This document shows positions 12,422 to 23,424 of a DNA stretch of 25,052 nt, piece by piece; positions within the stretch are counted from its first letter, which is position 1; each line of letters begins with the position of its first letter. The translations under genes were made by a program, and so were the position numbers. The notes below the pieces were generated by a model, which had not been told where the DNA came from, ran no database searches, and worked only from the letters and a program-made list of their open reading frames with translations. The stretch spans positions 1 through 25,052 of the forward strand of contig CAZPUN010000036.1 in assembly GCA_964589775.1 (NCBI GenBank), written 5' to 3'. The stretch comes from an uncultured archaeon (lineage in GTDB: Archaea; Asgardarchaeota; Thorarchaeia; Thorarchaeales; CAZPUN01).

Positions 12422-13813
12422 TTATTCATCTCGTAATAGCTCTTCAATTCTGCTAGCGATTATTTCAAGGTGTTCAGATAACTTTTCATTCTTTTCGATA
12501 ATATCTTGAATGATTTTCTCGGTGTTTGCATCTTTTGAATCTGGTGATTTTTTAGAAATCTCTTTCTTTAATTCATAAAATTCATTTTCCAGCTTTGTAA
12601 TTCTCATTGTAATTGATTTTAAATCCGTTAGGCTTTTCTTAATCTCTTTGCTGAAATCTATTGGCATGATCTTGTCGAGTATTGTTTTAATTTGTGTTAT
12701 TTCATTCTGAAGGTATTTTATATCCGGACCATATTCTATATGTTCTATTTTCTCCGAATGTTCTGAATGTAATTTATCTGCTGGAGTAAATGATGAGGGT
12801 AATTCATGAGCTTTTTTCTCATAGGGTGCTTCTATTGGTTTTGTAGATTTTATTGGGTGTTTTTGAATTTCTGCTTTATCTATTGTCGTTTTTTGCGTTT
12901 CAATATTTTTTTCATGTTTTTCTGGTTTTAGTAATATATCTTCCGAAATATCAATGTCAAACGTATCAGTACTATCTTTTGGTTTTTTGGATATATATTC
13001 TGATTTTTCAATTTCTATTGGTTTTTTAGGGAGATGCCACACATCTTCCATGGCATGGGCAAAATATCGAGTCGAAATATCTTTCAGCGATAGAGTGGTT
13101 TTAATGCATAATGTGGTATTATTTTTGAAGTTTGTAATTGAGTTGTACGACGAACTAAGAAATTTGATATGTGAAATCAAAAATTCAAGACTACCTGCAA
13201 CTTGTGAAATAGTCCGCATCAATGGATAAATTACTCTGAATATATTATTTAAAAATGTCATACAGAATATGTTTTTTGGAACTACAATTGAGCGGATTAT
13301 ATTCTTATTATCTGGCCATCTACTAAAGTTTCGTTCTGATGGATTTGTATATGTAATTGCATTAATAATATATCCTGATTGAGCATCTTCTTCTAAGTTG
13401 CTATAAATCTCTCCTATAGCATCAGAAAATATTTGCATCTGTTGAGCTCTATCAAGTTTAATTGTTATACCCATTTTCAAAACGTATTGGTCATCATTTC
13501 TCTTTAGTTCTGATATAACAAATCGATTTTTATAACCAAAGATCAAAACGCCTGTTTCAAAATTTAAAATTTCATCAGAATTGAAAAGTGCATCTATAAT
13601 TTTTCGGGGCAATACGTATAATACATAATTTTGAATATTATCTATGGGGGGAATTTGCTTGAGAGTTCCGAGATTTATGTAATACTTTTTATTGGGCCAG
13701 TCGTCTATTATATGCGCATCGAGCGGAGCTGAAATTATAGTCCACTCTTTTAATAATTCATGTTCTATCATTTGTTGGAAGTTACCTAACATCATTATGG
13801 TTTCCACTCTCAA
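12422..13813 (-). CDS. hypothetical protein: globular N-domain, charged linker, C-terminal coiled coil
   Basis: 463-aa ORF with a K/E/P/H-rich linker at about aa 265-360 and heptads after it. The true start may be ATG at 13798/13795. Confidence 0.7.
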   Translation of the reverse strand: MRVETIMMLGNFQQMIEHELLKEWTIISAPLDAHIIDDWPNKKYYINLGTLKQIPPIDNIQNYVLYVLPRKIIDALFNSDEILNFETGVLIFGYKNRFVISELKRNDDQYVLKMGITIKLDRAQQMQIFSDAIGEIYSNLEEDAQSGYIINAITYTNPSERNFSRWPDNKNIIRSIVVPKNIFCMTFLNNIFRVIYPLMRTISQVAGSLEFLISHIKFLSSSYNSITNFKNNTTLCIKTTLSLKDISTRYFAHAMEDVWHLPKKPIEIEKSEYISKKPKDSTDTFDIDISEDILLKPEKHEKNIETQKTTIDKAEIQKHPIKSTKPIEAPYEKKAHELPSSFTPADKLHSEHSEKIEHIEYGPDIKYLQNEITQIKTILDKIMPIDFSKEIKKSLTDLKSITMRITKLENEFYELKKEISKKSPDSKDANTEKIIQDIIEKNEKLSEHLEIIASRIEELLRDE

Positions 13814-13857: not shown

Positions 13858-14991
13858 CTAATATGCGCGAATTGTTTTTGAATATGTTTCAAGCACTTTG
13901 CCTTTGTATGAAACCATGAATTTGATTTCACTCTTAATCTTTCTGAATGCACTTGGAATTGAAACTTTCATATTTATTTCTTCGTTACCGCGTGCAAGTA
14001 CCTTGACATGTTCTTCAAAGAGTTGGTGCGAACCTATTTCTGCTGAAATTTCAACTTTTACATCAAGTTCAATCGAGACCGGACTTGGGTTTGCTATAAC
14101 CATACGCATTTGTATTGGTTTTTCACATGGCATTATTGTTGGGATCTCTGGATATGAATAACTCAAGTGCATTTTTTCTGGAGTAATCATACTATGTTTT
14201 GGCCATGAGGGAATCATGCCTAGTTCTAAAAGGCGTGATAATGAAATTTTTAATTGCTTTACCTCTAGTCCTAATTCTCCTGCTGCTTTTTCTATGTCCA
14301 TTACGCCATCATGAGATTCATAATATTTCAGAACTTTCTTGTCTTGATCTATAAGCCCTCCTATATGTTCCAAAATTTCAAGTATTCTATCCGGAAGATG
14401 CGATGCTTCATCTAATGAATAATATGTTCCATTTTTTATTGCACTAGCGATTTTAATGAACGCGTCTTGTGCATAATCGTTGCATCCCACTGTAAATAGA
14501 AAGAATGTTTCGCCAAATCGTTCTGATAGCTTTTGTACTTCATCAATTGGGTCCAATCCCTTTGGGCATCCATCTGGCCAGTGATCATTTTTTGTATTGG
14601 AATACTTTCTTCCATGAGGTGGTGCATCTCCTATAAGTGTAAGAACTTTATATGCATCTGGTGCCCATTTTAATTTCTCATTTGCTGCATGTAATCCGTC
14701 TGCTACTGCTTCTGGGCCATCGCCTCCCCCTTTTGCATGAAGATTCGAAATAAATTTGTGTATTGTTTTTACATTTGGTGTAAAGTCGTGTAATTTTGTA
14801 ACATATGAATTTTCTTCGGGTGGATGATCTCGATAACTTACCAATGCAAAACGTATTTGAAGCTCTGGACGTGCTTCTATTATTTTATCTACTATTCTAA
14901 ATAAATTATCACGTACTGCTGCTATATCATCTGACATTGAACCTGTTGTATCTACAACGAATGCAATATCGATTTTTTCAGAGTATGACAT
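13858..14991 (-). CDS. vWA domain protein (alpha-kinase/VwkA-associated-type vWA) with probable winged-helix and C-terminal beta-sandwich domain
   Basis: DIAFVVDTTGSM, FALVSYRDHPP, GGGDGPEAVADGL, IGDAPPHG, DHWPDGCP. Then MDIEKAAGELGLEVKQLKISLSRLLELGMI (wHTH-like) and a beta-rich tail. GGGAG RBS precedes ATG 14991. Confidence 0.85.
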   Translation of the reverse strand: MSYSEKIDIAFVVDTTGSMSDDIAAVRDNLFRIVDKIIEARPELQIRFALVSYRDHPPEENSYVTKLHDFTPNVKTIHKFISNLHAKGGGDGPEAVADGLHAANEKLKWAPDAYKVLTLIGDAPPHGRKYSNTKNDHWPDGCPKGLDPIDEVQKLSERFGETFFLFTVGCNDYAQDAFIKIASAIKNGTYYSLDEASHLPDRILEILEHIGGLIDQDKKVLKYYESHDGVMDIEKAAGELGLEVKQLKISLSRLLELGMIPSWPKHSMITPEKMHLSYSYPEIPTIMPCEKPIQMRMVIANPSPVSIELDVKVEISAEIGSHQLFEEHVKVLARGNEEINMKVSIPSAFRKIKSEIKFMVSYKGKVLETYSKTIRAY

Positions 14992-15077
14992 TCCCAATAA
15001 CTCCCATTGTATTCTAATTAAATTATTATGTTGACCTAAATAAAAAAGCTTTATGAAGGGTCATTTTATGCTATATT

Positions 15078-15697: not shown

Positions 15698-16078
15698 ATG
15701 TCTTCTGAAAGTGATATATTGGTGAAAATGGATTTTCAAGGGCTTGTCTCCATTAACGCAACATTGTCTCGTATAAAAGGTCCAATTATTGTAGACCGAA
15801 TTGTAGATCTCTTACCTGCATCATGGCGAGCTATCCGACGAAAAGATGAAATCCAGATGATTGTGCCCATTAAAGCTGGTGCTATGAAACCCACAAATAC
15901 TGTAAAACGTGGTGATATTGGTTTTATTCCTGTTGGAAACTTGGTTGTTATTTATCTTGCCGACAAAACAACTGCAGCAAAAGTAAATCTCATTGGAAAT
16001 GTTAATGATGTTGAAAAACTTGATTCTCTAGCAAATATACATGTGGGTCAGATTGTAAACGTTACTAAGCTCATTTAA
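15698..16078 (+). CDS. cyclophilin-like fold protein (AF2241/TM1367-like)
   Basis: P..VDRIVDLLP, VKRGDIGFIPVGN..IY, VNLIG.V pattern. GAGGAG RBS. Confidence 0.7.
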   Translation: MSSESDILVKMDFQGLVSINATLSRIKGPIIVDRIVDLLPASWRAIRRKDEIQMIVPIKAGAMKPTNTVKRGDIGFIPVGNLVVIYLADKTTAAKVNLIGNVNDVEKLDSLANIHVGQIVNVTKLI

Positions 16079-16139: not shown

Positions 16140-16676
16140 TTAAATTGCTGTTCTAATTTTCTTTGTTAATTTTTGTGTGGCATCCCTATGGATTGTCACA
16201 GGAATCACGTATATTCCTTCTTTTGATGCCTCTACAATGACTTCTACACCCTTATTTGTTACGCGTAATGTTCCTTGTTTTCCACGAATTCGCACGGCTC
16301 TAGTTGAAAATTCAACTTGCTTGTCAGTTACCTCCACTTTCTTTTGAGTTGTTCCAGTTCTCATTTCTTCCTTCAATGTTGCAATTTCTCGCTGTAATGC
16401 CTTCTTCTCTTCTTTTAGTGTTTCATTTTCTTTCTTCAAATGCTCGACTTCTTCAGTATTTGTTTCTCCTACATTTCCCACCCAAACTATTGTGGAGCCA
16501 TGCTTACTTCGTGTTACTTTAATAACACCCAGCGCACGTAATGGTGCTATGATGTCGTATACTCTGCGTCTATGCGATTTTAGTATCTTTGCGAGTTCTG
16601 AACTTAAAATTCCTTCTGATCCTGATTCTTTGATCAGTCGAATAGCTATTTCCGAGAGATTAGATAACTTTGCCAT
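16140..16676 (-). CDS. E2F/DP-like transcription factor (winged helix + coiled coil + marked-box-like region)
   Basis: KLSNLSEIAIRLIKESGSEGILSSELAKILKSHRRRVYDIIAPLRALGVI...IVWVG matches the E2F/DP DNA-binding domain (RRxYD...L...G.I...WxG), then heptads. GGTGA RBS at 16683-16687 favours ATG 16676. Confidence 0.82.
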   Translation of the reverse strand: MAKLSNLSEIAIRLIKESGSEGILSSELAKILKSHRRRVYDIIAPLRALGVIKVTRSKHGSTIVWVGNVGETNTEEVEHLKKENETLKEEKKALQREIATLKEEMRTGTTQKKVEVTDKQVEFSTRAVRIRGKQGTLRVTNKGVEVIVEASKEGIYVIPVTIHRDATQKLTKKIRTAI

Positions 16677-16719
16677 TTGCAATCACCGAATGTTTTATGC
16701 CATTATTATTTTACGACTA

Positions 16720-16740
16720 GCGCCAAATATATACATTTCT
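16720..16740 (-). promoter_or_regulatory. putative promoter of the E2F-like gene: BRE-like purines, TATATA, and an adjacent E2F consensus site TTTGGCGC
   Basis: The minus strand reads AGAAATG-TATATA(16733-16728)-TTTGGCGC(16727-16720), about 45-55 nt upstream of the ATG. Confidence 0.55.
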
Positions 16741-16751
16741 ATTTTCTTTAC

Positions 16752-16765
16752 TTAAATGCATTTAA
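16752..16765. promoter_or_regulatory. 14-bp perfect palindrome, possible operator
   Basis: TTAAATGCATTTAA in the divergent E2F-like/cmr1 intergenic region. Confidence 0.3.
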
Positions 16766-16831
16766 TATTATCGGAATCGACCTATTTTAGGGCGTTCTTC
16801 TAGTATTATATAACATAAATCTTAATTAATT

Positions 16832-17037: not shown

Positions 17038-18015
17038 ATGGAAATAACTGTAAATTGTAAAATAATAACTCCAATGTTCCTTGGCGATGCGGATGGTAAA
17101 ACCGCAGTATTAAGACCTCCTTCAATTAAGGCTGCATTACGTTTTTGGTGGCGTGCTCTACACGGAGATCTTTCATTGGCAGAATTAAAAAGTCGCGAAG
17201 GTGAAATATTTGGGTCTTCAAGTGGGAATGCTACGAAAAGCAGAGTTTCTATAAATGTAACCCCCAAGTTATTATCCACATCCCAGAAAGAATTAATTGG
17301 TTCTAAAAAATTAGTCATAACATCGCGTCATACTTTTCAAATAAATCTTATTGAATACTTGAGCTATGGAACCTACAATTTTAAGAATCATGGTATCTAT
17401 CGATATAATCGTCAATATATTCTTCCAGATCAAAAATTCACGATAAATCTTGTATTTCAAGATACGCAATATTCTAAAGACGTTATTAAAGCACTTTCAG
17501 TTCTTTCTAAATTTGGAGGATTAGGCTCAAAATCCAGAAATGGATTTGGCTCATTCAAAATTTTGGAAACAAGTTCTAATTTTTCAGACATTAAAATAGA
17601 CCGTCAGATGTTTTCACCAAATATTCCAAAATATTCTGCTTTTTCCTCTGAAATGAAACTTTGGAGAACAGATAAAACTAAGAGTTGGATTGGAGCTTTG
17701 AGTAAGCTTGCTGCCGCTTATCATTATGCTCGCAATAATATAGAATCTAAGCATAATTACTCATTAAGACAATATATTGGAGCTCCTATAATTATTCGAA
17801 AGATGGGGCAGGTCTCAAAATTATCACGGCATGCAAAACCGTACTTTATGTCAGTGCATTATGAAGATGGATATTATTATGGGCAAATATTATACTTGCC
17901 TTCTAAATATGCAATTGGTCTAGATGATGTTAATAATAATGATGATCGAATGTTTCTTAACGCATGTGATAAACTTAATAAACTTTTATCAGAAGAATTA
18001 GATGAGATTTGGTGA
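17038..18015 (+). CDS. cmr1: type III-B CRISPR RAMP protein Cmr1
   Basis: ITPMFLG, LRPPSIKAALRFWWRA, EGEIFGS, G-rich loop FGGLGSKSRNGFGS. Confidence 0.92.
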   Translation: MEITVNCKIITPMFLGDADGKTAVLRPPSIKAALRFWWRALHGDLSLAELKSREGEIFGSSSGNATKSRVSINVTPKLLSTSQKELIGSKKLVITSRHTFQINLIEYLSYGTYNFKNHGIYRYNRQYILPDQKFTINLVFQDTQYSKDVIKALSVLSKFGGLGSKSRNGFGSFKILETSSNFSDIKIDRQMFSPNIPKYSAFSSEMKLWRTDKTKSWIGALSKLAAAYHYARNNIESKHNYSLRQYIGAPIIIRKMGQVSKLSRHAKPYFMSVHYEDGYYYGQILYLPSKYAIGLDDVNNNDDRMFLNACDKLNKLLSEELDEIW

Positions 18016-18022
18016 GGGCAAA

Positions 18023-19351
18023 ATGGTTGAAGAAAAATCAAATGTATTGATCTCTTTCTTAGGAACTACAAATTATATTCCCGTAAATTATTATTTATAT
18101 AATAAGAAAAATAAAGTTGATAATACACGTTTTGTTCAAGAAGCGATTTCTAAGATTCTTTGTAAGGACTGGACAGATTCCGATAGAATTGTTGTATTTT
18201 TGACAGATGATGCTAAGAAAAAAAATTGGGAAAATCGTGAAGATCATGAAAAACAAAAAATTATTGGTCTTTATGAAAAATTGCAGAATCTGAAATTAAA
18301 GCCTCAAATTGTACCTATTTCGATTCCATCGGGAAAAAACAAAGATGAGATTTGGAAAATTTTTGATATTGTTTTCAAAACATTAAATGAGAATGATCAT
18401 GTACATTTTGACATTACTCATGCATTTCGTATGATTCCAATGCTTGTTTTCATTATTCTAAATTATGCAAAAACTATCAAGAATATTTCAATAGACGGTA
18501 TCTATTATGGTGCTATGGAATCCTTAGGAACAATCTCAGATATTAGAGCAATGGATATCTCTCAGCGAGATGTACCGATTTTTGATGTAACCGAATTTGT
18601 TAGAGTTTTCGAATGGACTATTGCAGTAAACAACTTTCAGATCTATGGTGATGCAAAAGAGATTTATAGTCTTACCATGGATATTGCAAAAAATTCCCGA
18701 AATAATCCCAACGTGAATATAGATGTAATTCGTAATTTTGCAAACAAGTTGAAATACTTTACAGATGCAATCAGAAGAAGTCTAGGTCCAGTAATCATAG
18801 AATTTGAGTATGAAACTCTTAAACACCTAATTAAAAAGATAAAGAATAACAATATTTATGCGTTAAATCCACTATTAGATCGAATTTCAAATAAGATTAA
18901 TGATTTCAAAAGTAATGATGTAGAAAATGGTTATCGCGCAGTAAAATGGTGTATTGAGCACAATCTGATTCAACAAGGATATACAATTCTCAGAGAAACA
19001 ATCATCAGTGAAATTCTTTTAAAAGCTTTGGCCAAATCATATTTTAAAAATGAAAAAATATTTAAAAATGAAAAAATACGAGAAGGAATTGCAGAACGAC
19101 TTTCAGTTATAGCCTTAAAAAATAGGCATGACAAGAAAGAGAATATGGATGGAATATTACCCGACGATATACGGCAAAAAGTAGATGCAGAAATTAATGA
19201 ATGTATAGCCCAAATTTTCTACAATTTAGGGAATTATCGGAATTATATAAATCATGCCGGTTTTAAACATAACCACATTAAAGCTAATGAATTATCTAAA
19301 CAATTATCAAATTTTATCAAACAATTGGAGGAGTGTCGAAAAAATGAATGA
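18023..19351 (+). CDS. csx1: CRISPR-associated CARF-HEPN ribonuclease, Csx1 (TM1812-like)
   Basis: LISFLG, FDITHAFR, IYYGA, PIFDVT, HEPN R-X4-H motif RNYINHAG. GGTGA RBS overlapping the cmr1 stop favours ATG 18023. Confidence 0.9.
   Translation: MVEEKSNVLISFLGTTNYIPVNYYLYNKKNKVDNTRFVQEAISKILCKDWTDSDRIVVFLTDDAKKKNWENREDHEKQKIIGLYEKLQNLKLKPQIVPISIPSGKNKDEIWKIFDIVFKTLNENDHVHFDITHAFRMIPMLVFIILNYAKTIKNISIDGIYYGAMESLGTISDIRAMDISQRDVPIFDVTEFVRVFEWTIAVNNFQIYGDAKEIYSLTMDIAKNSRNNPNVNIDVIRNFANKLKYFTDAIRRSLGPVIIEFEYETLKHLIKKIKNNNIYALNPLLDRISNKINDFKSNDVENGYRAVKWCIEHNLIQQGYTILRETIISEILLKALAKSYFKNEKIFKNEKIREGIAERLSVIALKNRHDKKENMDGILPDDIRQKVDAEINECIAQIFYNLGNYRNYINHAGFKHNHIKANELSKQLSNFIKQLEECRKNE
19043..19078 (+). 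repeat. perfect 18-bp in-frame tandem duplication in csx1
   Basis: TTTAAAAATGAAAAAATA x2, encoding FKNEKI-FKNEKI. Confidence 0.9.
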
Positions 19352-20249
19352 AAGAAATAGGCTCTTATTTTATGTTGTTGAAAGCTCTTTGCATGCAGGA
19401 TTAGGAAACAGCTTAGGTCGAGTAGACATGATTATTCAACGGGAACGATATACGCGATTTCCAATTATTGAGGCATCTAGTCTTAAAGGTGTTTTCCGTA
19501 GTGCGTTCGACAAGCGTATGTCCAAAGACGATCCAGAGAACAACGTAGTTTCCATACTGTTTGGTCCAGAAAAAGGAGATGAATATTCGGGCTCTCTAAT
19601 AATGTCAAATGCAAATATCTTATTGTTTCCTATTAAATCTATGAAAAATGTGTATGCATTAGCAACATGTCCTTCGGCTTTGCTACGATTTAATGAGTAT
19701 TTGCAAAAAGTCGGTAAAAAACCCCTTAAAATTCCAAAGCCGAATACAGTACCTGAAAATACTAATTTGATTATTTTAGAAAACAAGATTGTTCTAGAAG
19801 AATTTACTTTCGAGATTTCGGAATCCGATGCGTGCTCAACACTTGCCGAGTTTCTTGCAGAATATATAATTGGAGACGATGAGGATTACGCATATTTGAA
19901 AGAAAAAATAGAAAATGACCTTGTCATACTTTCAGATGACGATTTTTCATATTTTGTTCAATATTCTACAGAACTTCATACACGCACAAAAATAGACCCT
20001 GCAACGGGAACTGTACAGCATACCGGATTATTTACGGAAGAATATCTCCCTGCAGATACTGTTTTGTATTCGCTCGTGTCGATATCCAAGATTTACGCAG
20101 ATGGTAAACACATATTTAGTGATACTGATAAAGATGCAGAATCTAAAAAGGCATTGAACTACTTTATCGAGCATCTGCCTAAAGCAATACAAATTGGGAA
20201 AAATGGAAGTATTGGAAAGGGCATTGTAAAAATTTTTGGAGGGAATTAA
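19344..20249 (+). CDS. cmr4: type III-B CRISPR RAMP protein Cmr4 (Cas7 backbone nuclease)
   Basis: LHAGLG....VD..IQRE, FP.IEASSLKG, LFG, ILLFPIKS, RTKIDPATGTV...LFTEEYLP, QIG...IGKG. GGAGGAG RBS; ATG 19344 overlaps the csx1 stop. Confidence 0.93.
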   Translation: MNERNRLLFYVVESSLHAGLGNSLGRVDMIIQRERYTRFPIIEASSLKGVFRSAFDKRMSKDDPENNVVSILFGPEKGDEYSGSLIMSNANILLFPIKSMKNVYALATCPSALLRFNEYLQKVGKKPLKIPKPNTVPENTNLIILENKIVLEEFTFEISESDACSTLAEFLAEYIIGDDEDYAYLKEKIENDLVILSDDDFSYFVQYSTELHTRTKIDPATGTVQHTGLFTEEYLPADTVLYSLVSISKIYADGKHIFSDTDKDAESKKALNYFIEHLPKAIQIGKNGSIGKGIVKIFGGN

Positions 20250-20624
20250 TTGGTATCTAAGAATATGGAACTTACTATTGCAAAAATTGCATATGATTTT
20301 GCAGAGGAAGGTGCTGCAATATCAAAAAAGAAAGAGTACAAGTCCTATGTCAAAAAAATTCCAAGTTTAATTTACAAAAATGGCTTGTCTGCTACACTTA
20401 AGTTTATTGATATAAAACGTAATAATCAATCTAATAATGATGCATATAATATTTTGTTCAACCAAATTAAAAAATTCTTAGTAGATATGGGTCATTCTCT
20501 TAATGATCCTTTTACTTATGTTTCTTCGTGTGATTCTAATAAATATCGTAAAGTGACAATTGAAATTTTATCGTTATTCGATTGGCTAAAGCGTTTTGCA
20601 GACGGTTTAATTAAGGAGGATTAA
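20250..20624 (+). CDS. cmr5: type III-B small subunit Cmr5
   Basis: YKSYVKKIPSLIYKNGL..TL.F and WLKRFA motifs; position between cmr4 and cmr6. Confidence 0.92.
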   Translation: MVSKNMELTIAKIAYDFAEEGAAISKKKEYKSYVKKIPSLIYKNGLSATLKFIDIKRNNQSNNDAYNILFNQIKKFLVDMGHSLNDPFTYVSSCDSNKYRKVTIEILSLFDWLKRFADGLIKED

Positions 20625-20629
20625 TAAAT

Positions 20630-21532
20630 ATGGCGCGGTATATTCGTCCAATTAATAGACAAAAACGTGACTATAATAGGTCATATTCTCATAGAGAGTC
20701 CAGAGAGAATTGTGTCTATCTAGTACCCACGGATACAAGTAAACTAATACCAGAAACTATTGACAATTTTAACTTGAAGTTAAACAAAGCCATAAAACTG
20801 TGTAACGATAGTTTTAGGTTAGAAATAAACGATCATACTATTAATACTAAAATAATTAAAAGCGTTGCAGAGCGGCACCGTAATACTATAGAAAATCTCG
20901 GCATCTTGGTTGAGAGTAAAACTTTTGCTCCGGAATGGCGTATGATAATCGGGTTAGGTGACGCATCAGTTTACGAGACTTCTATGCATTTACATCATGT
21001 ATATGGTTTTCCATATATTCCTGGCAGTGGAATAAAAGGTGCATTACGAAATTATTTTATACTACGATATTTTGCCAGTGAGAACGGAACTGTTAATTTA
21101 GAAAATGCTGAAAGTAGAGCTATTAAAGATCGTGGATTCTGTGACATATTTGGGTCTCCTGAAGATGGCTATTACAAAAAAGCAGTTAAAGGTCGTATTA
21201 TCTTTTTTGATGCATATCCGCAGGGTAACGTTATTATTAAACGAGACATTATGAATCCGCATTACGCACCATATTATTCTGATGATGAAAATAAAACACC
21301 TCCCGGTGATTATTTCAATCCGGTTCCAATATTTTTCCTAGTTGTTGAAGAAACAAAATTTGAATTTATTTTTGGGATTAACCCCGAAGATAATCAAACA
21401 ATCCCTGAAGGAAAATTCAAAGGTAAAAAACCACTTGATGTTGTAATGGAAAATCTTGAAGATGCGTTCGAGAATTTCGGTATTGGTGCAAAAACTGCAG
21501 TTGGATATGGTCACATGGTGGTTAGTAAATAA
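20630..21532 (+). CDS. cmr6: type III-B CRISPR RAMP protein Cmr6
   Basis: RMIIGLG, LHHVYGFPYIPGSGIKG, IFFDAYP, DIMNPHY, PVPIFFL, GIGAKTAVGYG. Confidence 0.93.
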   Translation: MARYIRPINRQKRDYNRSYSHRESRENCVYLVPTDTSKLIPETIDNFNLKLNKAIKLCNDSFRLEINDHTINTKIIKSVAERHRNTIENLGILVESKTFAPEWRMIIGLGDASVYETSMHLHHVYGFPYIPGSGIKGALRNYFILRYFASENGTVNLENAESRAIKDRGFCDIFGSPEDGYYKKAVKGRIIFFDAYPQGNVIIKRDIMNPHYAPYYSDDENKTPPGDYFNPVPIFFLVVEETKFEFIFGINPEDNQTIPEGKFKGKKPLDVVMENLEDAFENFGIGAKTAVGYGHMVVSK

Positions 21533-21875: not shown

Positions 21876-22089
21876 TGATTATTAAAAAGATAAATCAATC
21901 TATTTCGTATTTATTCATAATGTCTTAATTATTTATTTTTATGATTTTATTTAAAACAGAAAAGATCAATTTGGGCTATGGTATAAATCTCTTATAAATT
22001 AAATTGTGAACTTAAATGTACAATATTGAAAGCACTAACCGATAATTTTAGAAGCGGATGATTCTTTCATCATCACAAAGGTGATTACA

Positions 22090-23424
22090 ATGGAACGAAC
22101 GAAAGTAATTATTATGGGTGCAGCAGGACGAGACTTTCACAACTTTAACGTGTATTTCCGTAATAATGAGAAATATGAAGTAGTTGCTTTTACAGCTGCA
22201 CAGATTCCCGGAATTGAAGAGAGAGTATATCCGCCCGAACTTTCAGGACCATTATATCCCAATGGAATAAAAATCTATCCTGAAGAAAAATTACCTGAAT
22301 TAATTAAGAAATTTAAAGTAGAACAAGTTATTCTCGCGTATTCTGATCTTGCACATGAAGATGTAATGCACAAGGCATCAATTGTTAATGCCGCAGGTGC
22401 TGATTTTAGATTAATGGGCACTGAGACTACAATGCTCAAATCCAAGAAGCCCGTTGTTGCTGTTTGTGCTGTAAGAACTGGTTGTGGTAAGAGCCAGACT
22501 TCTCGAAGAGTTAACAAGATTTTGAAGGATATGGGTCTAAAGGTTGTAGATGTACGACACCCAATGCCATATAATCCTGACTTAACAAAGCAGATCATGC
22601 AAAGATTTGAGACTGTTGAAGATATGGACAAGCAGGAATGTACAATTGAAGAGCGTGAAGAATATGAACCAATGATTAACATGGGTGTCATTGTATATGC
22701 TGGTGTTGATTATCAGAAGATTCTTGAAAATGCTGAAAAAGAGGCAGACATTATCACATGGGATGGTGGAAACAACGACTTTCCATTCTTCAAGCCCGAC
22801 CTGTTGATTGTAGTTGTTGATCCTCACAGACCCGGTCATGAAGTCGCATACTATCCTGGTGAAACAAACCTGCGTATGGCTGATATTGTTATTATCAACA
22901 AGGAAGCCACTGCTGATTTCGAGAACATTGAAGAAGTTCGTGAAAATGTCATGGCTGTAAATCCAAATGCAATTATTATTGATGCAGCATCACCTCTATT
23001 TGTAGATGATCCGGATGTAATTCGTGGTAAGCGTGTCTTAGTAATTGAAGATGGCCCAACAGTCACACACGGTGGTATGCCATACGGTGCAGGATACATG
23101 GCAGCTATCAAATTTGGTGCTGCAGAAGTAATCGATCCTCGTCCGTATGCAGTTGGTTCAATTATTGACACATTTGAAAAATATGACCACCTTTCTGAAG
23201 TTTTACCAGCTATGGGATACAGTCCAACTCAAATTAAGGAACTTGAAGAAACCATCAATAACTCTGATGCTGAAGCCGTTATTATCGGTACCCCCATCGA
23301 CCTCAGTCGTCTCATTAAATTCAAAGTTCCATACACTCGTGTCCGCTACGAACTCGAGGAAATTGGTCAGCCCAAGCTTGATGAAATTCTTAAGAAATTT
23401 GTTGAAGAAAAAGTCAAGAAATAA
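22090..23424 (+). CDS. arginine synthetase (ArcE)-like / cyclic 2,3-diphosphoglycerate synthetase-family P-loop protein
   Basis: MGAAGRDFHNFN, AVRTGCGKSQT P-loop, RHPMPY, TIEEREEYE, WDGGNND, EDGPT.THGGM. GGTGA RBS at 22080-22084 favours ATG 22090. Confidence 0.8.
   Translation: MERTKVIIMGAAGRDFHNFNVYFRNNEKYEVVAFTAAQIPGIEERVYPPELSGPLYPNGIKIYPEEKLPELIKKFKVEQVILAYSDLAHEDVMHKASIVNAAGADFRLMGTETTMLKSKKPVVAVCAVRTGCGKSQTSRRVNKILKDMGLKVVDVRHPMPYNPDLTKQIMQRFETVEDMDKQECTIEEREEYEPMINMGVIVYAGVDYQKILENAEKEADIITWDGGNNDFPFFKPDLLIVVVDPHRPGHEVAYYPGETNLRMADIVIINKEATADFENIEEVRENVMAVNPNAIIIDAASPLFVDDPDVIRGKRVLVIEDGPTVTHGGMPYGAGYMAAIKFGAAEVIDPRPYAVGSIIDTFEKYDHLSEVLPAMGYSPTQIKELEETINNSDAEAVIIGTPIDLSRLIKFKVPYTRVRYELEEIGQPKLDEILKKFVEEKVKK

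Follow-up and report, generated by a model that had tools for sequence, protein, structure and literature searches.

An E2F/DP-family winged-helix protein with a conserved, putatively self-pairing tail in a Thorarchaeia archaeon

E2F/DP factors and their Asgard homologues

The E2F/DP transcription factors drive the G1/S switch of eukaryotic cells, and their origin is an open part of eukaryogenesis. In the solved E2F–DP structures (2AZE, 5TUU) the two chains form a parallel coil and a beta domain that is built by both of them. The presence of E2F homologues in Asgard genomes is mentioned in the review 'The Archaeal Cell Cycle' (PMC7617429), and Eme et al. (2023, Nature 618:992, PMC10307638; Supplementary Information 4.1.5) listed an 'E2F/DP homolog', arCOG02749, which occurs in most Asgard groups and is absent from other archaea. 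The guess made in the original prediction, that E2F-like domains may already have been noted in Asgard archaea, was therefore right. According to Eme et al. (2023), the base-contact residues are conserved in the Asgard proteins, a dimerisation domain is lacking, as are the regulator-binding domains, and homology to E2F/DP stops at the DNA-binding domain. Earlier descriptions present the Asgard homologues as bare DNA-binding domains whose mode of action is different.

We analysed a window of 25,052 nucleotides (contig CAZPUN010000036.1, positions 1 to 25,052) and confirmed the E2F/DP-like open reading frame on its minus strand at 16140–16676. The gene encodes 178 amino acids, from an ATG at 16676 to a stop codon at 16140–16142. 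The reading frame is listed as 16140–16682 when a TTG is taken as the start; the ATG, which has GGTGAT on its 5' side, seems the likelier start, and the databases hold the same 178-residue product as it gives. Residues are numbered from this ATG throughout. The strings first quoted from the translation (HRRRVYDIIAPL, STIVWVG, the heptad run and VRIRGKQGTLRV...VEVIVEASKEGIYVIPV) are all present in it. Three parts make up the protein: a winged helix with the motif RRRVYD, a heptad helix of 35 residues and a beta domain of four strands.

It belongs to the published Asgard family arCOG02749 and has the same E2F_TDP winged helix with conserved base-contact residues. It departs from the description of that family by Eme et al. 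(2023), which includes no dimerisation domain, in having a conserved coiled coil and beta domain that were modelled as a homodimer. This conserved and probably homodimerising tail is what is new with respect to the literature. The best explanation overall, which we regard as probable, is an E2F/DP-family protein that binds DNA, most likely as a homodimer, has a probable GC-core target and would most likely repress its own gene. The original reading, of an E2F/DP-like factor with the full order of DNA-binding domain, coiled coil and marked box, thus survives in part: the E2F/DP winged helix, the coiled coil, the Asgard host and the modelled homodimer were retained, and the marked-box identity was not.

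With the eukaryotic E2F1–6 and DP proteins (1CF7; 2AZE, 5TUU, 5TUV) the Asgard protein shares a winged helix with RRxYD and, directly behind it, a coiled coil. As in their complexes, the chains of the modelled dimer touch at helix 1, at the end of helix 3, along the coil and in a beta module to which both contribute, and canonical TTTGGCGC sites, putative targets of the protein, occur close to the gene and, in sister genomes, upstream of thyA. Unlike the eukaryotic system, it is encoded by one gene instead of two and would form a homodimer rather than a heterodimer. It has no N-terminal arm and no transactivation or pocket-protein-binding tail, Ala stands in place of the Asn that follows YD, and no similarity of the beta domain to the marked box could be detected in sequence or fold. 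The atypical E2F7 and E2F8 (4YO2) provide another comparison: E2F8 is the best PDB match of the family profile (6.6e-13), and the Asgard protein, like these factors, would need no DP partner. However, E2F7 and E2F8 carry two tandem winged helices per chain, whereas the Asgard protein has one and would pair through its tail. BusR (7B5T) and the TrmB family share the same overall layout, but the Asgard winged helix scores 32.6 bits with E2F_TDP against 12.8 with TrmB, and the C-terminal domain is neither RCK_C nor TrmB_C.

The genome to which the window belongs (2.16 Mb, 96.75% complete) contains one copy of the E2F-like gene. The host is an Asgard archaeon from an order of Thorarchaeia, in agreement with the archaeal origin proposed at first. 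Within the order, an E2F_TDP domain was detected in 36 of 41 genomes, and within the phylum in 118 of 332 genomes with a completeness of at least 80%; none of 14 control genomes contained it. In the phylum the pattern follows family: the domain is nearly universal in some families and was not found in others, including one represented by 118 genomes. The loci returned by a scan of the genomes of 185,579 species have Thor-, Baldr-, Hermod-, Hel-, Odin-, Hod- and Heimdallarchaeota in their record titles. A word-indexed protein search with the E2F-like protein returned one close relative only. The copy in the window belongs to a separate family within the order and is ~35% identical to the Thorarchaeaceae copies, from which it also differs by a promoter rearranged through an inserted Cmr cassette.

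The winged helix and the predicted homodimer

Judged from its sequence, the N-terminal domain of the E2F-like protein is a true E2F/DP winged helix. Pfam E2F_TDP (PF02319) matches residues 4–67 (16476..16667, minus strand) with 32.6 bits, the curated cut-off being 25.7, and a genome search gives the same span; TrmB, the next winged-helix family of interest in Pfam, reaches 12.8 bits only. E2F_TDP is also the best Pfam family in each of 47 diverse relatives, all above the curated cut-off (best E 6.9e-11). The family profile, compared with all PDB sequences, matched E2F8 (6.6e-13), E2F4 (1.5e-7) and DP2 (0.0095), the match covering the winged helix in each case. The recognition motif RRRVYD occupies residues 36–41 (16554..16571, minus strand); R37, R38, Y40 and D41 do not vary in the family, nor does W65, and RRxYD is kept across the 47 sequences. 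The AlphaFold2 model of this region comprises helices 4–18, 25–32 and 36–48 and a hairpin of strands 52–57 and 60–65, with pLDDT above 90. Fold searches returned winged-helix matches, and the ESM Atlas gave eukaryotic E2F clusters over residues 1–80; one of its clusters, named 'E2F/DP family winged-helix', has 252 members, mostly from Thorarchaeota. The E2F/DP-type DNA-binding domain was thus correctly recognized in the original prediction, and the PF02319 profile check proposed with it gave the expected result, with no better match to TrmB.

A long helix, residues 74–108 (16353..16457, minus strand), directly follows the winged helix in the model and corresponds to the heptad run of ~30 residues noticed earlier. 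It is modelled as a parallel in-register coiled coil. The AlphaFold2 model was built on the 47 relatives and has a mean pLDDT of 86.8. The a/d positions (80, 84, 87, 94, 98, 101 and 105) are hydrophobic and conserved in the 47 relatives, and the conservation of these positions and of the beta-domain core extends across Asgard classes.

Prediction of a complex of two copies gave 0.48, compared with 0.00 for the best control, although this score may reflect likeness to the solved E2F–DP complexes rather than real binding. A score of this height was attained by 20 of the 30 proteins whose solved structures are pairs of one chain and by one of 23 solved as single chains. The runs agreed in at least 79% of contacts, and the pLDDT of the partner was at least 74. 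Among the least-error contacts in the model, one group (80:80, 84:84, 87:87, 94:94, 98:98 and 101:101) is that of a parallel in-register coil. A second group (147:130, 149:126, 157:157 and 122:157) would interlock the two beta domains, and in a third helix 1 (residues 3–12) touches the end of helix 3 (residues 40–49) in the modelled dimer. As the gene occurs once per genome, the simplest assumption is a homodimer, which was proposed at the outset and is indeed the modelled state. We infer from these models that the protein dimerises; the coiled coil and the beta domain probably represent together a conserved self-pairing module.

Identity of the C-terminal beta domain

The beta domain comprises residues 123–160 (16197..16310, minus strand) and is separated from the long helix by a linker of 14 residues. 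Its four strands (127–132, 137–141, 146–150 and 155–160) are modelled as interlocking with those of the second chain, and its conserved core residues are F123, V139, G143, E149, G154, V157 and P159. An amphipathic C-terminal helix, residues 166–177 (16146..16181, minus strand), is modelled with lower confidence.

This region had been likened to the marked box of E2F4. The E2F4 string quoted for this comparison is letter-perfect (5tuu_B 69–111); the likeness itself is not above chance, as 22% of shuffled E2F4 segments and 59% of shuffled E2F5 segments equalled the real score against the family profile (p = 0.22 and 0.59). The proposed check with the Pfam profiles E2F_CC-MB (PF16421) and DP (PF08781) gave no match at E up to 10, either in the 47 members or in C-terminal fragments from eight Asgard lineages. 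Searches with PF16421 over 41 genomes and with PF08781 over five produced none at the E2F-like gene and scattered coiled-coil noise elsewhere. Among PDB sequences, no chain of E2F or DP matched the C-terminal profile at E up to 10, and hhalign of the family against the marked-box cores of E2F4, E2F5 and E2F1 gave probabilities below 1%. Foldseek and VIA-align searches with the isolated beta domain, which is a monomer model of a probably interlocked dimer, returned no E2F or DP chain and no sensor fold. The marked-box identity of the domain thus found no support in the Pfam, profile, hhalign, shuffle or fold searches. A feature search of the ESM Atlas with residues 72–180 and 112–180 gave E2F_CC-MB clusters as the two top matches, at 0.76 and 0.79, scores that are below the 0.9 lead threshold, are uncalibrated for protein parts and may carry context from the N-terminal domain. 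E2F_CC-MB was shared by eight and nine, respectively, of the ten best named matches to these two segments.

These results bear differently on the alternative explanations of the protein. It seems very improbable to us that the protein has no special relation to E2F/DP and that its winged helix, a generic one, resembles E2F_TDP by chance or convergence: weak matches to many helix–turn–helix families could be read in this way, but all 47 members exceed the curated cut-off, RRxYD is invariant, E2F8, E2F4 and DP2 are the best PDB matches and the 14 control genomes give none. The succession of winged helix, coiled coil and C-terminal domain is common in prokaryotic regulators, so the layout alone is not diagnostic, and there is a serious possibility, somewhat short of an even chance, that the protein is an ordinary archaeal regulator of the TrmB or BusR type, in which only the winged helix is related to E2F and the beta domain is a lineage-specific sensor or oligomerisation domain. 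BusR, itself composed of a winged helix, a coiled coil and RCK_C, is the top whole-chain Foldseek match (E 6.5e-4), and TrmB is the second commonest Pfam match, found in 39 of the 47 members. The lack of any sequence or fold link to the marked box in our searches points in the same direction, as does the published view that ends homology at the DNA-binding domain (PMC10307638). However, the beta domain resembles no known sensor fold either, measures ~40 residues only and, in the model, forms an interface and not a pocket, and the language-model matches point to E2F_CC-MB specifically and to no sensor family.

Somewhat more doubtful is the reading that derives the C-terminal half and the E2F/DP CC-MB region from a common ancestor, with a pre-duplication homodimeric E2F/DP core preserved. 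The order and sizes of the parts agree with it (winged helix, coiled coil of ~35 residues, beta region of ~40–60 residues), the coil of the modelled dimer is parallel and both chains contribute to the beta domain, and the ESM Atlas ranks E2F_CC-MB clusters first. Against it stand the sub-threshold and possibly context-borne nature of those ESM Atlas scores, the lack of PF16421 or PF08781 matches in members, fragments and at the gene in the genomes searched, the C-terminal profile that retrieves no E2F or DP chain from the PDB, the hhalign and shuffle results, and the Foldseek and VIA-align searches. Even if the tail is unrelated to the marked box, the statement that the Asgard homologues have no dimerisation domain would still be corrected, and the pairing module of eukaryotic E2F/DP would have been replaced or added later.

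Candidate target sites and gene neighbourhood

An exact match to the eukaryotic E2F consensus, TTTGGCGC, is located in the promoter of the E2F-like gene at 16720..16727 (minus strand), directly after TATATA (16728–16733), and ends 43 nt before the ATG. Comparison with close relatives placed TATATA-TTTGGCGC within the longest invariant promoter block shared with relatives of 92% protein identity; a second invariant block, CGATTCCGATAATATTAAATG, lies at 16759..16779 (minus strand). At the 88 other orthologous loci, no TTTSSCGC was found within 200 nt upstream. We consequently rejected TTTGGCGC as a conserved autoregulatory element of the family, since it is absent in all 88.

Under the preferred explanation, that of a DNA-binding E2F/DP-family homodimer, the winged helix would read DNA through the RRxYD recognition helix that it shares with eukaryotic E2F and DP. 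The remainder of the protein would serve as a self-pairing module, composed of a parallel, leucine-zipper-like coiled coil and then a beta domain that interlocks with that of a second copy. With such a tail, the working unit would most likely be a symmetric homodimer, one gene doing the job of the E2F + DP heterodimer. Its probable target would be the E2F-type GC-core site TTTGGCGC. As this site abuts the gene's own TATA box in the lineage of the window, binding would most likely hinder transcription initiation, that is, lead to autorepression. The E2F-type sites are suggestive but circumstantial as targets of the protein, and both its DNA specificity and its autoregulation are putative.

Non-coding DNA of the window's genome contains nine copies of TTTGGCGC, which places it in the top three of 32 comparable 8-mers but only ~3x commoner than these. 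An TTTGGCGC regulon in this genome was considered and rejected: the neighbouring genes encode a creatininase, a caspase-like protease, a glycosyltransferase and unknowns, and are not replication or DNA-synthesis genes. The thyX gene of this genome has no E2F-type site, and a class I/II ribonucleotide reductase large subunit (PF02867) was not found in it. The 10-mer TTTGGCGCTA is present in six copies in the window's genome, four of which are non-coding (contigs C36:16720, C50:2592, C23:57292 and C30:1080 of G000), each after an AT-rich, TATA-like stretch. By our estimate ~0.2 non-coding copies would be expected by chance; the genes downstream are unrelated to replication. The same genome carries at least four copies of a repeated non-coding element of ~50 nt (..TAGC[CT]ATTTCGCGC[AT]TATACTCGCC..; contigs C21:174663, C21:176070, C23:117183 and C25:1225), which is probably a small RNA gene family and inflates the counts of TTTCGCGC. 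Within the window, Rfam detected no RNA family.

Thymidylate synthase, the product of thyA, catalyses dTMP synthesis and is under E2F control in eukaryotes; sites upstream of archaeal thyA echo that control. In 15 of 28 Thorarchaeaceae genomes an exact TTTSSCGC, mostly TTTGGCGCG(G), is found 68–128 nt before the thyA start. These upstream regions, with TTTGGCGCG or TTTGGCGCGAAA (L113, L116, L117, L119, L122–L125, L128, L131, L134–L136, L138 and L140), come from seven genera, with the site in either orientation; TTGGCGC(G/C) is present in several further genomes. The chance expectation of TTTSSCGC is estimated at ~0.015 per promoter, and in a control set, the regions upstream of the E2F-like genes themselves, it occurred in only one of 89. 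One of the thyA sites, TTTGGCGCGAAA, fits the consensus whichever strand is read, an arrangement that a symmetric dimer would prefer. Genome-wide counts of TTTGGCGCG in five Thorarchaeaceae genomes were not clearly above a reversed-pattern control. In one genome, G009, the thyA locus has no site and most TTTGGCGCG copies are inside genes. The link between the thyA sites and the E2F-like protein is a putative one.

A conserved self-pairing tail would give the origin of E2F/DP a concrete hypothesis, that of an ancestral homodimeric E2F already binding E2F sites, and the sites at the gene's own promoter and upstream of thyA in sister genomes point to it. A more far-reaching version, which we hold to be unlikely, is that the ancestral E2F/DP core survives in full in the Asgard protein, which would have a true but highly diverged CC-MB region, pair as a homodimer and recognise TTTGGCGC-type sites including those at thyA. 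If this were true, both the E2F–DP architecture and its link to DNA precursors would predate eukaryotes, against the published limit of homology.

The promoters of the Thorarchaeaceae E2F-like genes share a different element, TCGnAAAATCG, just 5' of a BRE/TATA-like box (ACACAAAC..TAAATA). It is located ~85–105 nt before the start codon, sometimes in two copies (L002, L005–L010, L015, L018, L034, L041, L051, L077 and others), and is missing from the promoter in the window. In the form TCGAAAAATCG, 10 exact copies were counted in G009 compared with 0 for the reversed control, and 2 and 0 in other genomes. It was rejected as a regulon motif, its copies being a coding/intergenic mix with no common gene function. 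One tandem TCGnAAAATCG pair is located ~30 nt from a TTTGGCGCG site (G009:C5:125340–125399).

The surroundings of the E2F-like gene are conserved, and 70–80 of 88 related loci show the same neighbours: a cyclophilin-like gene in convergent orientation, a gene for a VWA-domain protein downstream and a divergent gene of 447 codons. In the window, the cyclophilin-like gene (PF04126), a neighbour in 80 of the 88 loci, is at 15698..16078 (plus strand). The divergent gene, a neighbour in 70, usually lies ~280 nt upstream of the E2F-like gene; its copy in the window (22081–23424, plus strand; counterpart L072:2325–3665) is 5.4 kb away. A partial type III-B cassette (17038–21532, plus strand), coding for Cmr1, a TM1812/DxTHG CARF-type protein, Cmr4, Cmr5 and Cmr6, has been inserted between these two usually adjacent genes, and as a consequence the promoter in the lineage of the window differs from the others. 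Neither Cas10/Cmr2 nor Cmr3 was found in the window. A relative with a 92% identical E2F-like protein has a similar Cmr cassette that does not include the DxTHG gene.

The 447-residue protein gives only a weak match, to CobW-type P-loop proteins, and is 74% identical to its Thorarchaeaceae counterpart, compared with ~35% for the E2F-like protein. On the other side of the locus, a gene for a VWA-domain protein (13858–14997, minus strand) is followed by genes for unannotated proteins of ~390–460 residues (12422–13813, minus strand). Together they form a same-strand block downstream of the E2F-like gene that is conserved in 40–66 of the 88 loci.
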